Shown here piece by piece: positions 55,766 through 64,000 of a DNA stretch of 64,000 nucleotides. The notes under the pieces are model-generated. The model saw only the letters and a list, made by a program, of their open reading frames with translations, had not been told where the DNA came from and searched no databases. The position numbers and the translations under genes were made by a program. The stretch spans positions 18,206 to 82,205 of the forward strand of contig CBDBHB010000004.1 of NCBI GenBank assembly GCA_965205505.1, read 5' to 3'. How positions within the stretch are numbered: the stretch's first letter is position 1; each line of letters opens with the position of its first letter. The stretch comes from Acidobacteriota bacterium. Lineage in GTDB: Bacteria > Acidobacteriota > UBA890 > WLXD01.

Positions 55766-57501
55766 CCACTCCGATGCGCGTACCCCACTCGCATTCGTCG
55801 TCGAAGGTATCGACGTTCTTGTTGCTGTCCTCGGCGCTGAGGATGAACGACTTTCCGTCCGCAGGGTCGACGACGATGCTGCTGTAGTCGCCGCTGTGAT
55901 TCGTGTTGTTTCCGTCGACTCCCAGGACACAGCTGATGCCGCGGTCGCCCTTCTCGTAGATTGCGGCCTTGTCGAACTTGTTGTTTCCGGCCTTGCGACC
56001 GGTGAAGCCGATGCCAAGGTGCAGCGCCTTCCCGGCGATCTGGAAGACCGAGGCGATGTCCCCCTGTGTGTTCATCGCCACCGAAGGCGCCCACGCGTAC
56101 TTGTTCTTTCCGAGACCGAGGGTAGACTGCCTCGTGATAGTCGGCGTTTCGCCTCGAGTCGTGGAAAGCGACATCTCGACGATGCGCACGCAGCTCGCGG
56201 TTGCCTTACCGAACTTACAGCCAGTGGAGTGGGACGCGATCAACTGACCGCCCTGAATCACGGCTTCGAGCACGTTCTGGAAGCCAGTGCTGATCTGCGG
56301 CCGTTTCTTGTCCTTCTGCTGGGAGTCGGGCGGAATCGTGTAGATGTCGCCGGTCAGTTGCTCGAATGTCAGCGCCGGAGCGCGGTTCCCGGCCCGAGCG
56401 TCGCCGTCCAGCGTCCAGAAAACATATTGATCCGAGGCGGCGGCGCAGTCAAGCTGGCACTGCGTGCTAAGGAAGTGAGTCGCGCTGCCGGCGCTATCGT
56501 CGAGATGGAAGGCCGGTTGCACCGTTAAAGGCGTGTCGCCGTCGTTGTCGTCCGGTACCGCGAACTTCGATACCTTGAGGTTGGGGCACCCTCCGGCGTT
56601 GGCCGCGATAGCGTTCTTGTCGAAAGCGTAGATGTACGCTCTGGTGAAATCGCCGTCCGCCGTGAAGTCGAAGTTGTTCGCGCTGATCGCTGCCCACTCC
56701 GATCCCATTCCGAGCTGCGGGCGTCCGGCGCCGGACGGGCCCTTCTGCTTCCCTTTGAATCGGTAGGTGCACCAATCGCCGGACGCCCGCTCATCGGCGC
56801 TCGCGGACCTCAACAGGTTCCCGGGGGCGCTGGTGCGCGACACCGAGAGGTGTATCCAGGATGCCTTGGTGTCACTGTTGAATTGGCGACCGGTAAGGAA
56901 GAATCGCTCCGTGTCCGGATCGAAGTGGGTCTTCGTGATTGCCACGAACTGGTCTCCGTTGTCGTTGACCGGCTGTCCGTGATGGTCGTTCTGCGGCGCG
57001 ACGGTGCGGGCGCCACTGCCGCGAATTGATCAGGAGCAAAGCGGCGTTCACGGATTGGAGGATGTGCGTCTTCGACGCGGCTACGGCTGTATCGGGCGCG
57101 AACCAAACCCACAGCAAGTTATCGGTCTCGTTCATCGCTGTTTCCTGGGTCAGCCCTGTGAGTCTTTGGCGGATACCAGGCGCCCCGCTTCGTTCGTTCT
57201 GACTCGCTGCCTCGAGGATTCTTCCCTCAGGCAGGCGCGCGAATGTTGCAGCCCGCGATTTTATTCGCGCAATCTGCCGCGCCGACACAGGGTAGTGGTG
57301 GCGTTGCGATACGACGCGAATCGGCTTGGCTGCCTTTGGCTGTGCTCGTGTCTCCAAAGAAGGCGAGCTGAGATGAGGCCGTACGACAAATGTCTCCTCG
57401 GGCGCAAACCATCGACGGTGCGGTGAGCTCGGCTCGGTGTGAGTCGCGCCGACGCAGAGCCCCGAAACGGCGATCAAAGCAACGATTGGTCTTCCGCGCA
57501 T
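55755..57501 (-). pseudogene. Uncharacterised secreted protein, split by frameshift/deletion near 56950-57030
   Basis: A signal-peptide ORF (56872-57501) and a downstream ORF (55755-56945) overlap in different frames. RBS GGAGG upstream. Confidence 0.55.
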
Positions 57502-57551
57502 CGTCTACACCCTCCGTTTCGCCCGCCTGGGGTTGCGAGTCGCTGCCTGAC

Positions 57552-58762
57552 TGACCCAAACCCCGAAAACGGTGCCAGGTTGATGTTTAGGAAATCGGTG
57601 TACCGTCGTCCTCCAAGCAGGAGGACAGATGAAGCGGAAGAGGTACACGGACGAGCAGATCGCCTACGCGCTGCGGCAGGCACGCCGATCAAGGAGGTGT
57701 GTCGCAAGCTGGGCGTCAGCGAGCAGACGTTGTACACGTGGCGCCGCAAGTTCGCCGGGATGGGCGTGGCCGAACTTCGGGAGCAACGACAACTCCGCCA
57801 TGAGAACCGGAAGTTGAAGCAGCTGGTGGCAGATCTGAGCTTGGACAAGCACATGCTCCAGGAGGTGCTGTCAAAAAAGGTGTGAAGCCGGCGCGCAAGC
57901 GCGAGGTGGTGCGGTACCTGCAGGACGGGTTCCGTGTCAGTGAGCGTCGAGCGTGTCGGCTGATCGAGTTGTCGCGCACCAGCCATCGGTATCAGAGCAC
58001 AAGGACGGACGACCCCGTGCTGCGGCGTCGTCTTGGCGAGCTCGCCGCGGCGCGTCCGCGGTTCGGGTATCGGAGGTTGTGCGTGTTGCTACGCCGCGAG
58101 GGATGGGTAGTGAACCAGAAGCGCGTGTATCGGATCTATCGAGAGGAGGGGCTGGAGGTACGGACCAAAAAGCGACGGCGCAAGCGGGCGAGTCACATAC
58201 GGCTTGTGCTGCCGCCCGCAGAGCGGCCCAACGAGCGCTGGAGCATGGACTTCGTGACCGATCGGCTCGAGAGTGGCCGGCCGTTTCGGGTGCTGACGGT
58301 GGTCGATCAGTTTAGCCGTGAATGTCCGTTACTTGAGCCGGGCGTGTCGATGACCGGCAAGGCGGTGGCTGGAGCACTCGAGCGGCTGTCGTTTGCCGGG
58401 CCGTTGCCACGGGTCATCACCGTCGACAATGGCTCAGAATTCTACTCCCAGGCGATGGACTCCTGGGCGTACCGAAGAGGCGTGCAGTTGGAGTTCATTC
58501 GGCCGGGAAAGCCCGTGGAGAATGCGTTCATCGAGAGTTTCAACGGACGGCTTCGCGACGAATGCCTCAACGCCAACCTGTTCTTCTCGATCGATGACGC
58601 GCGCCGAAAACTGGAGGCTTGGAGGCTTGATTACAATACCCACAGACCACACAGCTCACTGAACGATCGAACTCCTACGGAGTTCGCCAGGGGCTGGCAA
58701 CCGGAGGCTTCGGAACACCGAATCCTAAACCTCTGACTGGTACTGATTTCGGGGTGGGGTCA
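57552..58762 (+). mobile_element. IS3-family element (IS407-like) with a frameshifted orfA
   Basis: IRs TGACCCAAACCCCGAAAACGGTGCCAG / CTGGTACTGATTTCGGGGTGGGGTCA. A6G slippery site at 57873-57879. OrfA 'MKRKRYTDEQIAYALRQA' shifts to 'TPIKEVCRKLG'. Confidence 0.9.
57882..58736 (+). CDS. IS3 transposase OrfB
   Basis: 'WSMDF', 'VDNGSEF', '[22 protein letters not shown]'. Confidence 0.9.
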
Positions 58763-59495: not shown

Positions 59496-59556
59496 GACAC
59501 GCTTATCCTAGTAGGCGATCAAATAGGCAACTATTCCTGTTCGCAGATTGGGGACC

Positions 59557-59679
59557 ATGCAGCCCCTTCCGCCGCTTGAATGTCTGCGCTTCTTCGAAGC
59601 CGCGGCCCGCCGCGAGAGCTTCGCCAAGGCGGCTGAGGAGCTCCACGTCACATCCTCGGCCGTTGCGCACCGCATCAAG
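59557..59679 (+). pseudogene. LysR (GcvA/AmpR-like) HTH fragment
   Basis: MQPLPPLECLRFFEAAARRESFAKAAEELHVTSSAVAHRIK, truncated just before the IS1-like element. Confidence 0.8.
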
Positions 59680-59735
59680 GACGGAAGGCCCGGCGGCCCA
59701 GTCGGTAGTGTCCTAATTTGAATCGGGGATCAGGC

Positions 59736-60035
59736 TTACGACCTATAATCACTTACGATCGCCGCCCGGACGGCCTTCGCAGGAGAATCAACCTGCTCCG
59801 TATGCAGTACAGCGTAAAAGCGGCGATTCTCGGAGCCCTCTACGGGCGACGACCACGCGTAGCAGATCGACGCTGAGGGATGGCCTGAGAGGCTGTAGAC
59901 GTGGACCGCGCCTTCCCACGCCACCTGGCCCTGGAACTCCTCGCGGACGGCTACAGCCTTCTGGTGCGAAGCGTGGCAGCCGTGCAGCCGTTCGACGTGG
60001 CGTTGCAACTCAGTCGTCGCTACTACTTCCGGCAT
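59736..60035 (-). CDS. Hypothetical passenger protein (99 aa)
   Basis: Clean ORF overlapping the upstream ORF's end and stopping just inside the IR. Confidence 0.65.
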   Translation of the reverse strand: MPEVVATTELQRHVERLHGCHASHQKAVAVREEFQGQVAWEGAVHVYSLSGHPSASICYAWSSPVEGSENRRFYAVLHTEQVDSPAKAVRAAIVSDYRS

Positions 60036-60765
60036 CCCCAGCCTCGGAATCCGAGATCAGCGAATCTCGCATCAGCTCGAGGTAGCCGGTAAGAATCTTA
60101 TGGTCCGCGCTGGTGAGGCTGACCGGAGTTCGCAAGGTCGCCAGCCGCTTACCCGGCAGCGGAATCGAGAGATCTCGCTCGGCCGCTTCTGCTTCCATGA
60201 CATTCTCCTGTCGATTCGGCTGCGGAGAGCCAGCGGAGGACTGTCCGAGCGTTGGTTCCTCTAGTTTATCTTCACCACCATTCGATTCTGGCTCGGGAGA
60301 GGTCAGATTAGCATACGAGATCGTTGCCCGAAACTGCTTGATGAAATCTTCGGCGCCGCTCGGAGGGAAGCTCTTGTCACGCTGCAAGTACAACTTGATA
60401 TCAGCGTCTGAAGGTAGCTTACCGGCGTACTTGCTCCACAGTTCCTGGTGGAGTATCGGATTCAAAGCTGCCCTACAGACAGCTTCGTCGCGTTCGGGAG
60501 AATCGGGCCGCTCATCCAGCACAATCTCGAGAGCCAAGGGGCTAAGTTTCGCGTCTTGGCCGCGCCTCTGGTCGATCAGTCCGAACTGACGCAACGCTCC
60601 GAATGCCACAAGCCCGTTGCTGCTCTTCGGCGAGTATCCCCAGTGCTGCAGAACGGTTTCCTTGGCGGAAGAATGATTGAGAATCTGCCTGTGAAGTGTC
60701 GTGGCCAGCTCCACTGCGCGCTCTAAGTCAATTGACGGCTTCCGAGGACTACGCGATTTCGCCAT
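60010..60765 (-). CDS. Hypothetical passenger protein (251 aa, possible winged-helix)
   Basis: RBS AGGAGG. Helical N-domain with 'GALRQFGLI' and an acidic linker. Confidence 0.7.
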   Translation of the reverse strand: MAKSRSPRKPSIDLERAVELATTLHRQILNHSSAKETVLQHWGYSPKSSNGLVAFGALRQFGLIDQRRGQDAKLSPLALEIVLDERPDSPERDEAVCRAALNPILHQELWSKYAGKLPSDADIKLYLQRDKSFPPSGAEDFIKQFRATISYANLTSPEPESNGGEDKLEEPTLGQSSAGSPQPNRQENVMEAEAAERDLSIPLPGKRLATLRTPVSLTSADHKILTGYLELMRDSLISDSEAGDAGSSSDD

Positions 60766-60818
60766 TCGATAGGCCCTCCTGTCGATGCTACACTTATCCT
60801 TCTATGGGACGCTGATAG

Positions 60819-60911
60819 CGGAAGGTGAGGGAATCGAACCCCTTCGCTGCGTCCACAGCGAGCCCTCCGGGTGTAAACCCCGTTACTGGACCATCCAATG
60901 GGTCACCTTCC
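60819..60911 (-). tRNA. Non-canonical 9/3 (or 8/4) allo-tRNA-like gene, long variable arm, apparent anticodon UUA
   Basis: Acceptor GGAAGGTGA/TCACCTTCC; D arm ATTGGA-TGG-TCCAGT; anticodon arm CGGG-GTTTACA-CCCG; variable arm TCGCTG/CAGCGA; T arm GGG-TTCGATT-CCC; G73; CCA not encoded. Confidence 0.75.
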
Positions 60912-60978
60912 GTTGTCCGTCCCACTCCTCGAACAGTTTTCGTATACGAATTAGGCTCGCGTACGAATATGCGCGAAC

Positions 60979-61044
60979 AGTCTCACGTTTAATCTCCCCC
61001 TAGTCAAGCGCGGGGTTGAGAAATAATCCGATATCTGCTAGATT
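60979..61044. promoter_or_regulatory. Divergent sigma70-like promoters between the tRNA and transposase A
   Basis: Plus strand TTGAGA-17-TAGATT (61016-61044). Minus strand TTGACT-17-GAGACT (61007-60979). Confidence 0.45.
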
Positions 61045-61068
61045 GTTCTCCATACTAAGGAGATCAAC

Positions 61069-61899
61069 ATGGCTAACGTCCTGAAGCGAGAGAAGCAAGA
61101 GGCGGTCATCCGGTGCTTGGTCGAGGGTTGCTCGATCCGAGCCACGGAGCGCATGACGGGCGTTCACCGCGACAGCGTCATGCGGTTGCTCGTCCGGGTC
61201 GGAAACGGCTGCGAGGCGGCGATGGATGACCGAATGCAGAACCTTCCCTGTGAGCAGATCCAGGTTGACGAGATCTGGGCTTACGTTGGCAAGAAGCAGC
61301 GCCACCTAAAGCCATCTGATGACCCGCGTCGCTTCGGTGACTTCTGGACGTTCGTTGCGCTGGACCCGGAATCGAAGATCGTCCCAGCCTTTCGCGTCGG
61401 CAAGCGCGACCTAGCAACCGCTACCGCGTTCATGGGCGATGTCGCTTCGCGCCTCGCCAACCGCGTGCAGCTTTCCTCCGACTCCCTGGCCGCCTACGTC
61501 GAAGCGACCGAGCAGGCATTCGGTCCGTACGTCGACTACGGTCAGATCGTAAAGTGCTATGAAGCCGAGCCAATCGGTCCGGGTAGGTACAGCCCGCCGC
61601 ACGTCACGAGCACCCGTCGCAGGGCGATCGTCGGCCAGCCAGCACCAGACAAGATCTGCACCAGCCACATCGAGCGGCAGAACCTGACCATGCGTATGAA
61701 CATGCGCCGCTTCACTCGCCTGACGAACGCGTTCAGCAAGAAGGTCGAGAACCTGCGCGCGGCCGTCTCGCTGCACTTCGCTCACTACAACTTCGTGCGC
61801 GTCCACCAGACTCTGCGAGTCACTCCCGCTATGGAAGCTGGCGTGACGGGCTCACTTTGGTCAATTGGTCGACTGATCGACGAAGCAGGTTCAAATTAG
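61069..61899 (+). CDS. IS1-family DDE transposase A (HTH plus DDE, no zinc finger)
   Basis: 'LVEGCSIRATER.TGV', 'QVDEIW', 'SDS', 'IERQNLTMR...RRFTR'. Stop codon lies inside the IRR. Confidence 0.88.
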   Translation: MANVLKREKQEAVIRCLVEGCSIRATERMTGVHRDSVMRLLVRVGNGCEAAMDDRMQNLPCEQIQVDEIWAYVGKKQRHLKPSDDPRRFGDFWTFVALDPESKIVPAFRVGKRDLATATAFMGDVASRLANRVQLSSDSLAAYVEATEQAFGPYVDYGQIVKCYEAEPIGPGRYSPPHVTSTRRRAIVGQPAPDKICTSHIERQNLTMRMNMRRFTRLTNAFSKKVENLRAAVSLHFAHYNFVRVHQTLRVTPAMEAGVTGSLWSIGRLIDEAGSN

Positions 61900-61935
61900 G
61901 ACACTACCGCCCGGTCGGTAGTGTCTCAGTTTAAT

Positions 61936-61983
61936 TTCCCAGGTTGACGCTTCATCGAGTTCCCAGGTTGACGCTTCATCGAG
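61936..61983 (+). repeat. Perfect 24-bp tandem duplication
   Basis: TTCCCAGGTTGACGCTTCATCGAG twice. Confidence 0.95.
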
Positions 61984-62073
61984 CGTCCCGTAGGCTGCGC
62001 GGCGCACATACACCAGCTAGCATGGCCCGGCGCCTATCGCCGGAACACTCACCATTACCAGGAGGCACCCCGA

Positions 62074-62446
62074 ATGGGACGCCGAATCCTCTGCGCAGTC
62101 ACTCTGGTCTGCGTCATCTTCTCGACTTCTGGATGCGCCACCATTCTGGCAAAGCAACCGGCCGTCTCCGCTAACTCAAACCCGGTAGGCGCACAGGTGC
62201 TTAGTTGATGGCCAGCTTGTCGGCAACACACCGATGCGTGTCGAGCTTGACCCGAAGAACGCCAAGTCGATCACCTTGCGCATGGAAGGCTGCGAAGACA
62301 TAACCGTTCCATTAACCCGCAGCACCGGCGCTGGCTGGGTTATCCTCGATATCCTGACGGGAGTCGTTCCGATCGTTATCGACGCGGTTACCGGAAAGTG
62401 GACCAGCTTGAACCCCAAGGACATCAACGCCCAGATGCGATGCTAG
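62074..62446 (+). pseudogene. PEGA-domain lipoprotein with a +1 frameshift near 62200
   Basis: RBS AGGAGG; 'SGCATI...SNPVGAQVL' then 'VDGQLVGNTP...ID.VTGKW'. Confidence 0.7.
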
Positions 62447-62705
62447 TGAAGAGCTAGTTGCTGGAGAAAGGGCGGGCGCTGTCGAGAAATCGCGCAGTGC
62501 CCGCCCTTATGTCTGTCACTTGGTGCGTATACGCTAGCGTATATACTCTCTCCACCACCACACCCACCCCATCCTAGGCCAAGGAGCACAACCCCTCGAT
62601 GTCGAAGACGAACGGTAGCGTAGGCAGAGCATTGAAGCGCGCTCCTTTGTCTTGAACACGATTTTCCCCTCGACGCACCCCCAAACCCACACCTACGGAG
62701 CATAG

Positions 62706-62954
62706 ATGCCGACGGGACCGAATGGTGAGAAGCGCCCCGGAAGCGTTATCGCTAACGCAGTCCACGTGATGGAGATCGCCACCGGCCAGCGCGAAGAGGA
62801 GTGTGCCGACGTGAAGCCATCACGTTCAGTGCCAGCACGTCGTGCTGGTGGGCTGAAGGGAGGGAAGGCGCGCGCAGCGTCTCTGTCGAGTAAGCGCAGG
62901 TCCGAGATCGCGCGCAAGGCCGCCGAGGCGCGCTGGGGCAGGAAGCTGGCCTGA
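62706..62954 (+). CDS. Small basic protein (KGG/histone-H1-like, nucleic-acid-binding candidate)
   Basis: 'GP.GEKRP..VI.NAV.V..IATG', 'GGLKGGKARA..LS..RRSEIARKAA.ARW'. RBS GGAG. Confidence 0.75.
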   Translation: MPTGPNGEKRPGSVIANAVHVMEIATGQREEECADVKPSRSVPARRAGGLKGGKARAASLSSKRRSEIARKAAEARWGRKLA

Positions 62955-62983
62955 GAAATCGTGGGGGCCGGGAAGACGGGCAG

Positions 62984-63058
62984 AGCCGCCGGCGGGGATC
63001 GAACCCGCAATCAGGGGTTTCCAGCCCCTAGCCTTACTCCCAATTTGGCCACGGCGGC
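62984..63058 (-). tRNA. tRNA with Ser anticodon GGA on a short-variable-loop, U73 (non-Ser) body
   Basis: GCCGCCG/CGGCGGC; D stem GCC/GGC; AGGGG-CT GGA AA-CCCCT; 4-nt variable loop; GCGGG-TTCGATC-CCCGC; discriminator T; CCA not encoded. Confidence 0.85.
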
Positions 63059-63292
63059 TAAGTTTGTGTGCTCCCGGCCCCTCACGTGTTACGCTAGACG
63101 CAATTAGGGCGTTGTTGATTTGGATCCACTTCGGGCTCCACCCCGAAGCGGATCGCCCCCTAATCCGCTTTCGACGGCCCTTTCACCTTTGGTGATCGGG
63201 CCGCTTCCTTTTGCGAGGATACCAGACCTTAGTATGGTCGTCTAACGTCTGGTTGCCACCAGAAAACACACTGAATTTAAACTGATTTATGC

Positions 63293-63321
63293 TTGACAAC
63301 AGAATGGTATTCATGTACCTT
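63293..63321 (+). promoter_or_regulatory. Sigma70-like promoter of transposase B, probably leaderless
   Basis: TTGACA-17-TACCTT, with the ATG 7 nt downstream and no RBS. Confidence 0.55.
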
Positions 63322-63328
63322 TCTGGGT

Positions 63329-64000
63329 ATGAACAAGCTATCGACCGCGAAGCGAGCAACGATCATCAACCTGCTCGTAGAGGGCTCTTCTTTACGGGCC
63401 ATTAGCCGCATCACCGGGGCCTCGATCAACACGATCTCGAAGCTCCTGGTTGACGCTGGCAACGCTTGCGCGGCGTACCATGACGAGCACGTGCGCGAGC
63501 TGCCCTGCAAGCGTGTGCAGGCCGATGAAATATGGGCGTTCTGCTACGCCAAGCAGAAGAACGTTCCCGAGGGCAAGCGCGGTCATTTTGGCTACGGCGA
63601 CGTATGGACGTACACGGGCATCTGCGCGGACACGAAGCTGATCGCATCTTGGCGCGTGGGGCCGCGCGATGTGGGCACGGCTACCGATTTCATGCAGGAT
63701 CTCGCGGGCCGGCTGAGCAACCGCATCCAGCTAACGACTGACGGGCACAGGATGTACCTGAACGCAGTCGAGGATGCGTTCGCGCATGAGATCGACTACG
63801 CGATGCTCCAGAAGGTCTACGGCCCGGACCCGGAGCCGCAGCGCCGCTACAGCCCCGCCAAGTGCCAAGGAAGCCAGCGGCTGCGAGTGCAGGGGAACCC
63901 TGACGAGGCGCACATCAGCACGTCATACGTCGAGCGACAGAACCTGACCATGCGGATGAGCATGCGGCGCTTCACGCGGCTCACGAATGCATTCTCGAAG
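63329..64000 (+). CDS. IS1-family DDE transposase B (3'-truncated by the window edge)
   Basis: [30 protein letters not shown]...QADEIW...TTDG...[24 protein letters not shown]. Confidence 0.9.

Follow-up and report, generated by a model that had tools for sequence, protein, structure and literature searches.

Transfer RNA-like genes as cargo of IS1-family elements in an Acidobacteriota contig and in related loci

Allo-tRNAs, other bacterial transfer RNAs (tRNAs) whose body and anticodon do not match, and insertion sequences with passenger genes are all known kinds; what appears to be new here is a variant of cargo, in that tRNAs are carried by elements of the IS1 and IS1595 families. The subject is the last 4.3 kb of a 64,000-nucleotide stretch of DNA from an Acidobacteriota bacterium (the window; contig CBDBHB010000004.1, positions 18,206 to 82,205, so that the window ends where the 82-kb contig ends). 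These 4.3 kb are two adjoining IS1-family elements, each with one tRNA-like gene, named winA in element 1 and winB in element 2. A preliminary description, made from the letters of the window, had proposed two such neighboring elements of common layout, and both elements, both genes, and the shared layout are found where it placed them. Its remark that no such system had been described needs qualifying, since allo-tRNAs in Acidobacteria are already in Mukai et al. 2017 (PMC5389517).

Compared by description, winA resembles the allo-tRNAs in its 12-bp acceptor branch that can be read as 9/3, its long variable arm, its G73, and its non-serine anticodon. The 9/3 forms there include UAA readers, and an acidobacterial host is a further likeness. 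Among the relatives reported below (sampled loci carry L numbers), L021 is an 8/4 form with UAU, the commonest type in that paper, and the "polycistrons of irregular tRNAs" described there resemble the two-tRNA arrays of L024, L086, and L125. The differences are that the available parts of the paper describe no mobile-element architecture, whereas here the tRNA lies inside IS1 inverted repeats and target duplications, and that winA has an anticodon stem of 4 standard pairs, where theirs is longer, and no clear D tetraloop. Transposons are linked to allo-tRNAs there in one loose remark, repeated in a 2020 review (PMC7609411), and the searched passages of a 2024 review of mistranslation (PMC11415595) mention no transposon or mobile element.

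The carrier is also of a known kind. Passenger-gene insertion sequences of the IS1595 and IS1 families, for which the term tIS is in use (PMC7986276), share with the present elements a DDE transposase, inverted repeats, an 8-bp target duplication, and passenger genes. What sets the present elements apart is that the passenger is a tRNA. We know of no reported tIS with such a passenger. A literature search found no paper on tRNA cargo of IS1/IS1595 elements, with most subscription journals and the 2017 supplements lying outside the search, so that an earlier report is possible. The elements may belong to the ISMhu11 subgroup, a term not met in the literature searched.

Streptomyces and its relatives reportedly have tRNAPro variants with Ala, Thr, or Asn anticodons that are natural mistranslators. 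Like the genes here, these are genomic tRNAs with a disagreement of body and anticodon for which regulated missense is predicted. They are said to be accompanied by a dedicated prolyl-tRNA synthetase paralogue, whereas the cargo tRNAs come without a synthetase gene and would have to rely on anticodon-blind synthetases of the host. Stop-recoded phages carry suppressor tRNAs to read their own recoded late genes, and the likeness is that of a mobile element with its own nonsense suppressor, here a predicted one; unlike the phages, the present carriers are transposable elements of 2-5 kb, and no in-frame stops specific to those that bear tRNAs were found. The tRNA-like domain of transfer-messenger RNA and the tRNA-Ala minihelices are resembled by a family of mini-tRNAs among the relatives, which keep G1-C72, G2-C71, G3:U70, A73, and the T-arm and have a reduced D-arm. 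The minis differ from the transfer-messenger RNA domain in having an anticodon-like hairpin and no mRNA-like part, and winA and winB are not of this type.

The two elements and their tRNA-like genes

Element 1 is complete. Its parts, together with the target that it interrupts, are given here, ORF standing for open reading frame.

59548-59703, + strand: truncated N-terminus of a LysR-type regulator gene, the disrupted target context (Pfam HTH_1, E = 6.1 × 10−10)
59696-59703: left copy of the direct repeat, GCCCAGTC, 7/8 identical to 61909-61916
59704-61908: element 1, complete, 2.2 kb, IS1-family; inverted repeats of 19 nt, flanking repeat of 8 bp
59704-59722, + strand: left inverted repeat, beginning GGTAGTG, 0 mismatches against the type-A consensus
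59736-60035, − strand: ORF99, an accessory protein conserved in the transposase-1 clade, homologues 47-57% identical
60010-60765, − strand: ORF251, a passenger protein, its ATG 54 nt downstream of winA and preceded by AGGAGG
60820-60911, − strand: winA, 92 nt, a 9/3 (or 8/4) allo-tRNA-like cloverleaf
61016-61044, + strand: the sole sigma-70-like promoter match of the region, 9/12 matches, 25 nt upstream of the transposase-1 ATG
61069-61899, + strand: transposase 1, 276 aa, a single ORF whose TAG stop lies within the right inverted repeat
61890-61908, − strand: right inverted repeat, 0 mismatches against the clade consensus
61909-61916: right copy of the direct repeat, GCCCGGTC, directly abutting the left repeat of element 2

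Element 1 is placed in the IS1 family by a DDE transposase that matches IS1 profiles and by its inverted repeats and short target duplication. Transposase 1 scores 36.2 bits against Pfam PF03400 (cut-off 24.1) and 68.5 bits against the IS1 model NF033558 of NCBIfam, which is under the equivalog cut-off of 100; its homologues of about 70% identity number thousands of proteins, many of them named IS1 family transposase in their sources. The helix-turn-helix (HTH) and DDE parts are in one frame, with no programmed frameshift as in classical IS1. Both 18-mers of the repeats equal the clade consensus, and the longer arms are complementary at 23/25 positions. ORF99, ORF251, and winA all lie between the ends at 59704-61908, which is the arrangement of a tIS. 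The insertion cuts short a LysR-type gene: homology of the fragment to an intact paralogue in the host genome (G000:C9:2961540-2962229) stops near 59679, and in one contig of run X4 the LysR frame is carried on from 59680. In contigs of run X1 the matches to element 1 show no difference, and runs of two other studies hold variants, 3-4% different, that span ORF251 and the tRNA-like gene.

Element 2 follows directly.

61917 to beyond the contig end: element 2, IS1-family, its right end outside the contig
61917-61934, + strand: left inverted repeat, type-B-like, 3 mismatches to the type-B consensus
61936-61983, + strand: perfect 24-bp tandem duplication just inside the left repeat
62074-62208 and 62234-62446, + strand: putative lipoprotein gene in two pieces, no Pfam match to either
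62706-62954, + strand: ORF82, a small basic protein with tblastn matches in 17 loci
62984-63058, − strand: winB, 75 nt, a class-I cloverleaf with anticodon GGA
63320-64000, + strand: the first 227 aa of transposase 2, truncated where the contig stops

Identity between the two transposases is 45%. With the transposases of many type-B loci transposase 2 shares 55-66%, and the fragment scores only 15.7 bits against PF03400. Each of the two transposases is single-copy in the 5.98-Mb host genome, whose EF-Tu has neighbors of 83-87% identity that bear the label Acidobacteriota. The right end of element 2 is not visible because the contig ends within transposase 2, and since the right 8-mer abuts its left repeat, element 1 was most simply inserted at an 8-bp target beside a resident element 2. 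The frames of the two lipoprotein pieces overlap at 62195-62208, as after a frameshift. When the missing right end was sought in the genome, only a solitary repeat-like 18-mer (C9:2602587-2602604, 1 mismatch against the left repeat of element 2) and a short similarity to the 5' part of the lipoprotein gene were found. The latter, at C9:2601977-2602041, is 80% identical to the start of the gene and lies about 550 nt from the 18-mer, and the two together may be a transposase-less remnant.

The winA cloverleaf has the loop GUUUACA (anticodon UUA), a 7-bp variable arm, and a G discriminator at 60819, CCA not being encoded. It has the 12-bp branch of an allo-tRNA, 9/3 or 8/4, with the long variable arm and the G73, features of the serine identity set (in which the discriminator is G73 or U73); the D-stem is 5-6 bp with a loop of 3-5 nt and no clear tetraloop. 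ARAGORN overlooks the gene at default settings and calls tRNA-Stop(tta) at -ps95, and the Rfam tRNA-Sec model gives 34.8 bits (E = 4.4 × 10−4), below its gathering score of 47. A custom scanner, defined by a T-loop and a perfect 12-bp acceptor branch, finds winA as 9/3 or 8/4 with every pair standard; its only matches in the 64-kb window are winA and winB, and in the 5.98-Mb genome it matches 52 places, mostly ordinary tRNAs. The fold z-score of winA is −3.62, equaled by 0/200 shuffles.

An element orthologous to element 1, 2.3 kb long, is present on a metagenome contig, L082; it lies at another site, where the 8-bp target duplication is perfect. The gene order is that of element 1: left repeat, ORF99, an ORF251-like frame (ORF271), the minus-strand tRNA-like gene, transposase, and right repeat. 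Its winA orthologue (L082:1473-1563, same place and strand as winA) has G73 and then an encoded CCA. The anticodon stem has, in both genes, 4 standard pairs and two purine-purine oppositions, and each gene lies 54-55 nt before the next ATG on the same strand, that of ORF251 or ORF271, each with a Shine-Dalgarno sequence. After the repeats, winA is the best-conserved part of element 1 against L082, as the identities by part indicate.

tRNA-like gene: 76-84%
transposase gene: 68%
ORF99: 60%
ORF251: 53%
intergenic DNA: about 50%

In the two genes the acceptor (9 + 3 pairs), anticodon, and T helices are 100% paired, and two pairs, the fourth of the acceptor and the first of the anticodon stem, have changed in a compensatory way. 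A covariance model of the pair (R1) has no further clear 9/3 members in 163 sources, the next scores being 32.7 bits (L001), 30.7 bits (L021), and 29.7 bits (L103).

WinB scores 57.3 bits against the Rfam tRNA model (E = 10−10), and the ARAGORN call is tRNA-Ser(gga). Its variable loop is of 5 nt, its discriminator is a U at 62984, CCA is not encoded, and the body is tRNA-Cys-like. As a bacterial tRNA-Ser it is ruled out: the 5-nt variable loop and U73 stand where a class-II body and G73 are required, and the host's own tRNA-Ser(GGA) has 90 nt and a long variable arm. The nearest host tRNA is tRNA-Cys(GCA), 73% identical to the winB body, and when 400 other Acidobacteriota genomes are searched, canonical tRNA-Cys(GCA) genes come out as the best matches; winB thus resembles a tRNA-Cys body altered at the middle base of the anticodon. 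It is not a tRNA-Cys as such, U73 being present but the anticodon being GGA and not GCA. The preliminary description had said that neither tRNA matches anticodon to body, and this holds for both, with UUA on an allo body in winA and GGA on a tRNA-Cys-like body in winB.

Elsewhere in the host genome, at C9:617574-617648, ARAGORN reports a "tRNA-???(agca)" with a tRNA-Cys-like body, an 8-nt anticodon loop, and U73. An IS1-type repeat-like 18-mer with 3 mismatches (C9:618957-618974) is 1.3 kb away. The sequence may represent a decayed element or a frameshift-suppressor-like tRNA.

Recurrence of tRNA-like genes in related elements

The question of whether odd tRNAs recur in homologous elements, which the preliminary description had named as its own test, is answered by 160 loci: the best 80 of 573 relatives (576 candidates) from genome contigs and a further 80 of 596 relatives (600 candidates) from metagenome contigs. 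The tRNA search used ARAGORN at default and -ps95 settings, custom scanners, and two covariance models. The ends were delimited by two repeat consensuses, type A and type B, both ends being mapped in 97/160 loci. The tRNA-like genes do recur, in 30/160 elements (34 genes), inside or probably inside the ends at 27 loci and with the ends unmapped at 3, distributed over the transposase clades as follows.

clade at least 58% identical to transposase 1: 13/30 loci with a tRNA-like gene
clade nearest transposase 2: 6/44 loci
remaining loci: 11/79

They are also enriched inside the inverted repeats. In the 97 delimited loci the non-transposase cargo, 223,880 nt in all, has 24 tRNA-like genes and the flanking DNA, 408,149 nt, has 6, a density in cargo about sevenfold that of the flanks (Poisson p = 1.8 × 10−13, a value computed over loci that are kin and so non-independent). 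Target duplications of 8-10 nt are present in 64 of the 70 elements with good repeats, and in 15 tRNA-bearing elements the tRNA is enclosed by target duplications matching at 8/8 positions. Nearly all elements have extra DNA of 1-3 kb.

Just outside the ends there are seven canonical tRNAs, all of them class-consistent (Phe, Leu twice, Met twice, Thr, and Glu). Also counted outside is L156b, an odd Ser-like class-II gene with a GCG anticodon, which lies beside a poorly matched right repeat. Three elements (L054, L060, and L077) end 63-77 nt upstream of canonical tRNAs, two of them tRNA-Met(CAU) and one tRNA-Thr, a hint that insertion may favor sites upstream of tRNA genes.

The cargo tRNAs are of several kinds.

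mini-tRNAs: 13 loci, 67-70 nt, Ala-type, with G1-C72, G2-C71, G3:U70, A73, a normal T-arm, and the D-arm reduced or absent
loop motifs of the minis: UUACA in 8, CUACA in 2, UUGCA in 2, UUGACA in 1
allo forms: winA and L082 (9/3, UUA); L021 (8/4, UAU)
class-II, Leu-like, A73: L019 (UUA), L055 (CUA), L027 (UGG), L033 (GGA)
class-II, Ser-like, G73 or U73: L103 (UUA), L111 (UAG), L153 (UGC), L156b (GCG)
class-I with Ser or Leu anticodons: winB (GGA); L020, L069, L101, and L154 (GCU); L086a (CAG)
class-I with G3:U70 and A73: L086a (CAG), L139 (UCU)

This listing by identity leaves six further class-I genes unplaced. Class-II and allo bodies bear UUA, CUA, UGG, UGC, UAU, and GCG anticodons and class-I bodies GGA, GCU, and CAG, the commonest anticodon-like triplets overall being UUA and CUA. 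L019, L033, and L055 score 56-59 bits against RF00005. In BLAST comparisons the cargo tRNAs resemble one another in nothing more than T-arm words. The loop motif UUACA is common to winA, L082, and 8/13 minis, winA sharing it with the minis of its own clade.

As to position, 26/34 tRNA-like genes are on the transposase strand upstream of the transposase, 24 of these 26 within 500 nt. The layout given in the preliminary description, with the tRNA on the minus strand, is therefore right for both window elements but does not hold as a general orientation, the minus strand being the minority among relatives. Three tandem pairs of a mini and a class-I tRNA, 8-22 nt apart, lie just upstream of the transposase (L024:3757-3911, L086:3790-3950, and L125:482-629).

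The minis form a family with a conserved fold. All 13 are on the transposase strand and end 22-225 nt before its ATG, mostly 32-70 nt, 11/13 being within 70 nt. Their covariance model, R2, finds 13 loci at E ≤ 10−5, six of which were not seeds. In the alignment, which was fitted to the model and leans that way, 96% of the cells are paired and 15/19 pairs have changed on both sides, a figure reached by 0/500 shuffles, and no slid register comes near the real pairing. The G:U at 3:70 is retained in 12/15 alignment rows amid covarying neighbor pairs. Recurrence, enrichment, mismatch of body and anticodon, and one covarying family together establish that a class of tRNA-carrying IS1-family elements exists. 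Most genes of this sort escape tRNA finders at default settings and the thresholds of Rfam, as when ARAGORN misses winA and the 13 minis reach the gathering score of no Rfam family, and they are therefore under-annotated.

A second carrier is the IS1595 family. The host genome of the window has one example:

G000:C9:2962668-2962755 (L161:3669-3756): Leu-like class-II tRNA with a UGC (Ala) anticodon, in the element L161:3329-6888

This element has 35-nt inverted repeats, an IS1595-family transposase gene, an XRE-HTH + M78-peptidase gene, and a 251-aa ORF, and no target duplication was seen at it. The LysR paralogue of the gene broken in the window adjoins it. In 150 other Acidobacteriota genomes, model R2 has 6 matches, of which one is a canonical tRNA-Ala and one, in an unpublished genome, was left out; of the four non-canonical matches that remain, three are within 1.5 kb of an IS1595 transposase gene. 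None of the R2 matches in these 150 genomes adjoins an IS1-type transposase. At one such mini-type match, L168, an Xre-like HTH gene stands beside it.

Decoding and other possible roles

Our reading, to which we give a probability of roughly one half, is that both window elements are tIS of the single-ORF branch of IS1 and that their tRNAs are selected, co-mobile cargo, most likely code-altering. The best explanation of the pattern is that these tRNAs belong to a wider recurrent set on IS1/IS1595 elements of soil and sediment bacteria, nearly all with stop or non-cognate anticodons. Suppression or mistranslation is the function that we favor, with processing or regulation in cis as its main rival, and we infer that the cargo tRNAs are transcribed, charged, and used in decoding. 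In such a scheme RNase P and 3' nucleases would trim the transcripts, to which CCA would be added. Anticodon-blind synthetases would charge them, seryl-tRNA synthetase (SerRS) in the case of winA and alanyl-tRNA or leucyl-tRNA synthetase (AlaRS or LeuRS) for many relatives. Low-level reading of UAA/UAG or of non-cognate sense codons by the charged tRNAs would follow, and every host newly entered by an element would thereby receive a suppressor or mistranslator that travels with it; for winB the predicted outcome is Cys, or some other residue, at UCC/UCU.

We propose that the bodies, being largely in the Ala, Ser, and Leu identity classes, would be charged in any host, whatever the anticodon. 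Bacterial LeuRS does not read the anticodon. SerRS and AlaRS are blind to it as well, and G3:U70 sets Ala identity (PMC5389517, PMC7609411). In E. coli, several allo-tRNAs of the 8/4 and 9/3 types placed Ser or Ala at stop and sense codons, and UAA readers are among the 9/3 forms (PMC5389517). In the host genome TAA ends only about 10% of the open frames of at least 400 codons, so that an ochre reader would be the least costly suppressor.

A number of points weigh against this. The first are about recurrence and fold. By the methods used, 130/160 elements have no detectable tRNA-like gene. WinB has no homologue in the 160 loci or in the 400 other Acidobacteriota genomes searched, and by itself it folds no better than shuffles (z = −0.83). 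Covariation of the folds, on which the preliminary description had staked part of its claim, is strong in the mini family but not significant in the 9/3 type of winA, with its two sequences (3 pairs changed on both sides, matched by 61/500 shuffles). The next are about decoding. In winA the anticodon stem has no more than 4 Watson-Crick pairs, flanked by purine-purine mismatches, and there is a C at position 37, where a pyrimidine is unusual for a decoding tRNA; the minis also carry C37, and several of them have C and not U at 33 and no D-arm, which is at odds with decoding on a bacterial ribosome. The UUACA motif, spread as it is over winA, L082, and the minis, fits a binding site equally well as an anticodon, and the short spacing of the tRNA-like genes before a start codon is fixed.

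The last of these points are about charging and use. Six allo-tRNA(UAU) variants are reported to be inactive in E. coli and two toxic (PMC5389517). The same source has cysteinyl-tRNA synthetase (CysRS) reading the anticodon (PMC5389517), and since the identity of winB is nearest to Cys, its charging is doubtful. No excess of in-frame stops was found in the genes of the elements themselves: of 160 transposase alignments 9 have internal stops, 3 of these 9 come from loci with a tRNA, and several of the stops are natural ends. Read-through of TAA/TAG merges ORFs equally often in controls (105/178 trials) and in suppressor-bearing elements, and these two comparisons say little either way about a need of the element for its own suppressor.

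Several of the same observations make a role in cis a serious rival, namely C37, C33, the lost D-arm, the loop motif, and the spacing to starts, though we judge it less probable than our own reading. By this account the tRNA-like RNAs do not decode but are processing or regulatory modules of the element. One might be an RNase P/RNase Z "punctuation" site or a structured leader, which separates or stabilizes the transposase or ORF251 message, shields it from read-through, or couples it to the tRNA-processing or charging enzymes of the host. The positions suit it: most tRNA-like genes (26/34) are upstream on the transposase strand, nearly all of these (24/26) within 500 nt, with the minis 22-225 nt before the ATG and winA and its L082 orthologue 54-55 nt before that of ORF251/ORF271, where a Shine-Dalgarno sequence is present. 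So does the structure, the minis keeping mainly the 12-bp acceptor/T minihelix after loss of the D-arm and the loop motif being kept across two body types, while C37 and loops without U33 are poor for decoding. Yet winB has no same-strand gene downstream and converges on ORF82, and other cargo tRNAs are far from starts (L020 at −1461) or by the right repeat (L026 and L027). A processing signal alone leaves unexplained the strict G3:U70 and A73 amid covarying neighbors, a cis role does not account for Ala, Ser, and Leu body classes with stop or mismatched anticodons, and L019, L033, and L055 score as good full tRNAs (RF00005, 56-59 bits). The cis and decoding roles need not be mutually exclusive.

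That the tRNAs are neutral hitch-hikers, captured host genes or fragments in decay whose odd anticodons are pseudogene mutations, is improbable. WinB would suit it, since the middle base of the anticodon is essentially all that separates winB from a tRNA-Cys and no other element has a homologue of it, and so would the broken lipoprotein gene of element 2, the weakened anticodon stem of winA, and an allo-tRNA pseudogene overlapping a transposon-related ORF that is described in the 2017 paper (PMC5389517). Neutral decay nevertheless fits poorly with conservation and covariation: compensatory change maintains the stems of the minis, no protein gene of element 1 is as well conserved as winA, and the density in cargo is sevenfold that in the flanks. 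Nor would random decay focus anticodons on UUA/CUA or keep anticodon-blind identity sets.

Least probable of all is that the tRNAs are decoys, antidotes, or targets in tRNA conflicts, carried alongside toxin-antitoxin or defense cargo and guarding the element or host against toxins that cleave or modify tRNA, for despite the frequent location of allo-tRNA genes near toxin-antitoxin systems in metagenomes (PMC5389517), the XRE-HTH + M78-peptidase gene beside the tRNA of the IS1595 element L161, and the Xre-like HTH gene by the mini-type match of L168, the window cargo proteins match no toxin, antitoxin, or defense family (Pfam, NCBIfam, and PADLOC; one PADLOC match at E = 0.0039), and a decoy should mimic host tRNA, from which the cargo tRNAs differ in anticodon or architecture.

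Returning to the reading of suppression or mistranslation, a broader version of it, which we hold tentatively and at less than even odds, is that IS1/IS1595 elements are natural vehicles that spread code-altering tRNAs with Ala, Ser, and Leu identity sets across bacterial phyla, the tRNA being a selectable or self-serving payload. If so, the payload could restore function to nonsense alleles, make the proteome more varied under stress, or adjust how the element itself is expressed, and the allo-tRNAs and "irregular tRNA polycistrons" of soil metatranscriptomes would largely be transposon cargo. Allo-tRNAs and mismatched bacterial tRNAs, whose biology has been open since 2017, would gain a genomic home and a route of spread, and tRNAs would be added to the passenger repertoire of insertion sequences. 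The elements also suggest that suppressor or mistranslating tRNAs pass horizontally between soil bacteria in nature. As they are compact (2-5 kb) and clonable, the question of tRNA transfer is directly testable, and designs that are anticodon-blind and host-independent are candidates for genetic-code engineering.

Protein cargo and other features

The protein cargo was held in the preliminary description to be unrelated between elements, and this does not stand as a statement that it is arbitrary: ORF99 homologues are kept in 11/13 of the closest loci, and ORF82 is matched in 17 loci, mostly nearer transposase 2. In most elements of the transposase-2 type the gene next to the left repeat, some 90-110 nt further in, is the ORF82 homologue, which suggests a conserved accessory protein of the transposase-2 clade. 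The nearest ESM-Atlas clusters to ORF82 are automatically named "RNA-binding protein" (score 0.92, a lead only).

ORF99 has no Pfam, NCBIfam, or PADLOC match; its AlphaFold model has a predicted local distance difference test score of 87 and no PDB fold match at E ≤ 0.001 among the 219 listed. ORF251 is assigned no protein family by Pfam, NCBIfam, or ESM-Atlas, the last giving unnamed clusters and DUF5343 at 0.90 (again a lead only), and has weak homologues in L002, L004, L006, L065, and L017 and also in L082 (26% identity). For the window cargo as a whole (ORF99, ORF251, ORF82, and the lipoprotein pieces), Pfam, NCBIfam, and PADLOC are empty save for the one PADLOC match at E = 0.0039.

The region has 1 promoter-like site, where shuffles expect 1.3, and 3 terminator-like sites, which is not above shuffles, and the promoter scan found none for winA or winB.

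At 57439-58755 the window has overlapping ORFs of 148 and 284 aa with 33-nt imperfect inverted repeats (57560-57592 and 58723-58755); judged from these ORFs and repeats, the stretch looks like an IS3-family element.

Cargo RNA is not confined to tRNA-like genes. Inside the IS1-family element of L006, about 110 nt from the left repeat, there is a c-di-GMP-I-GGC riboswitch (L006:1634-1716; RF03167, 70.8 bits, above gathering), and structured regulatory RNAs are therefore also cargo.

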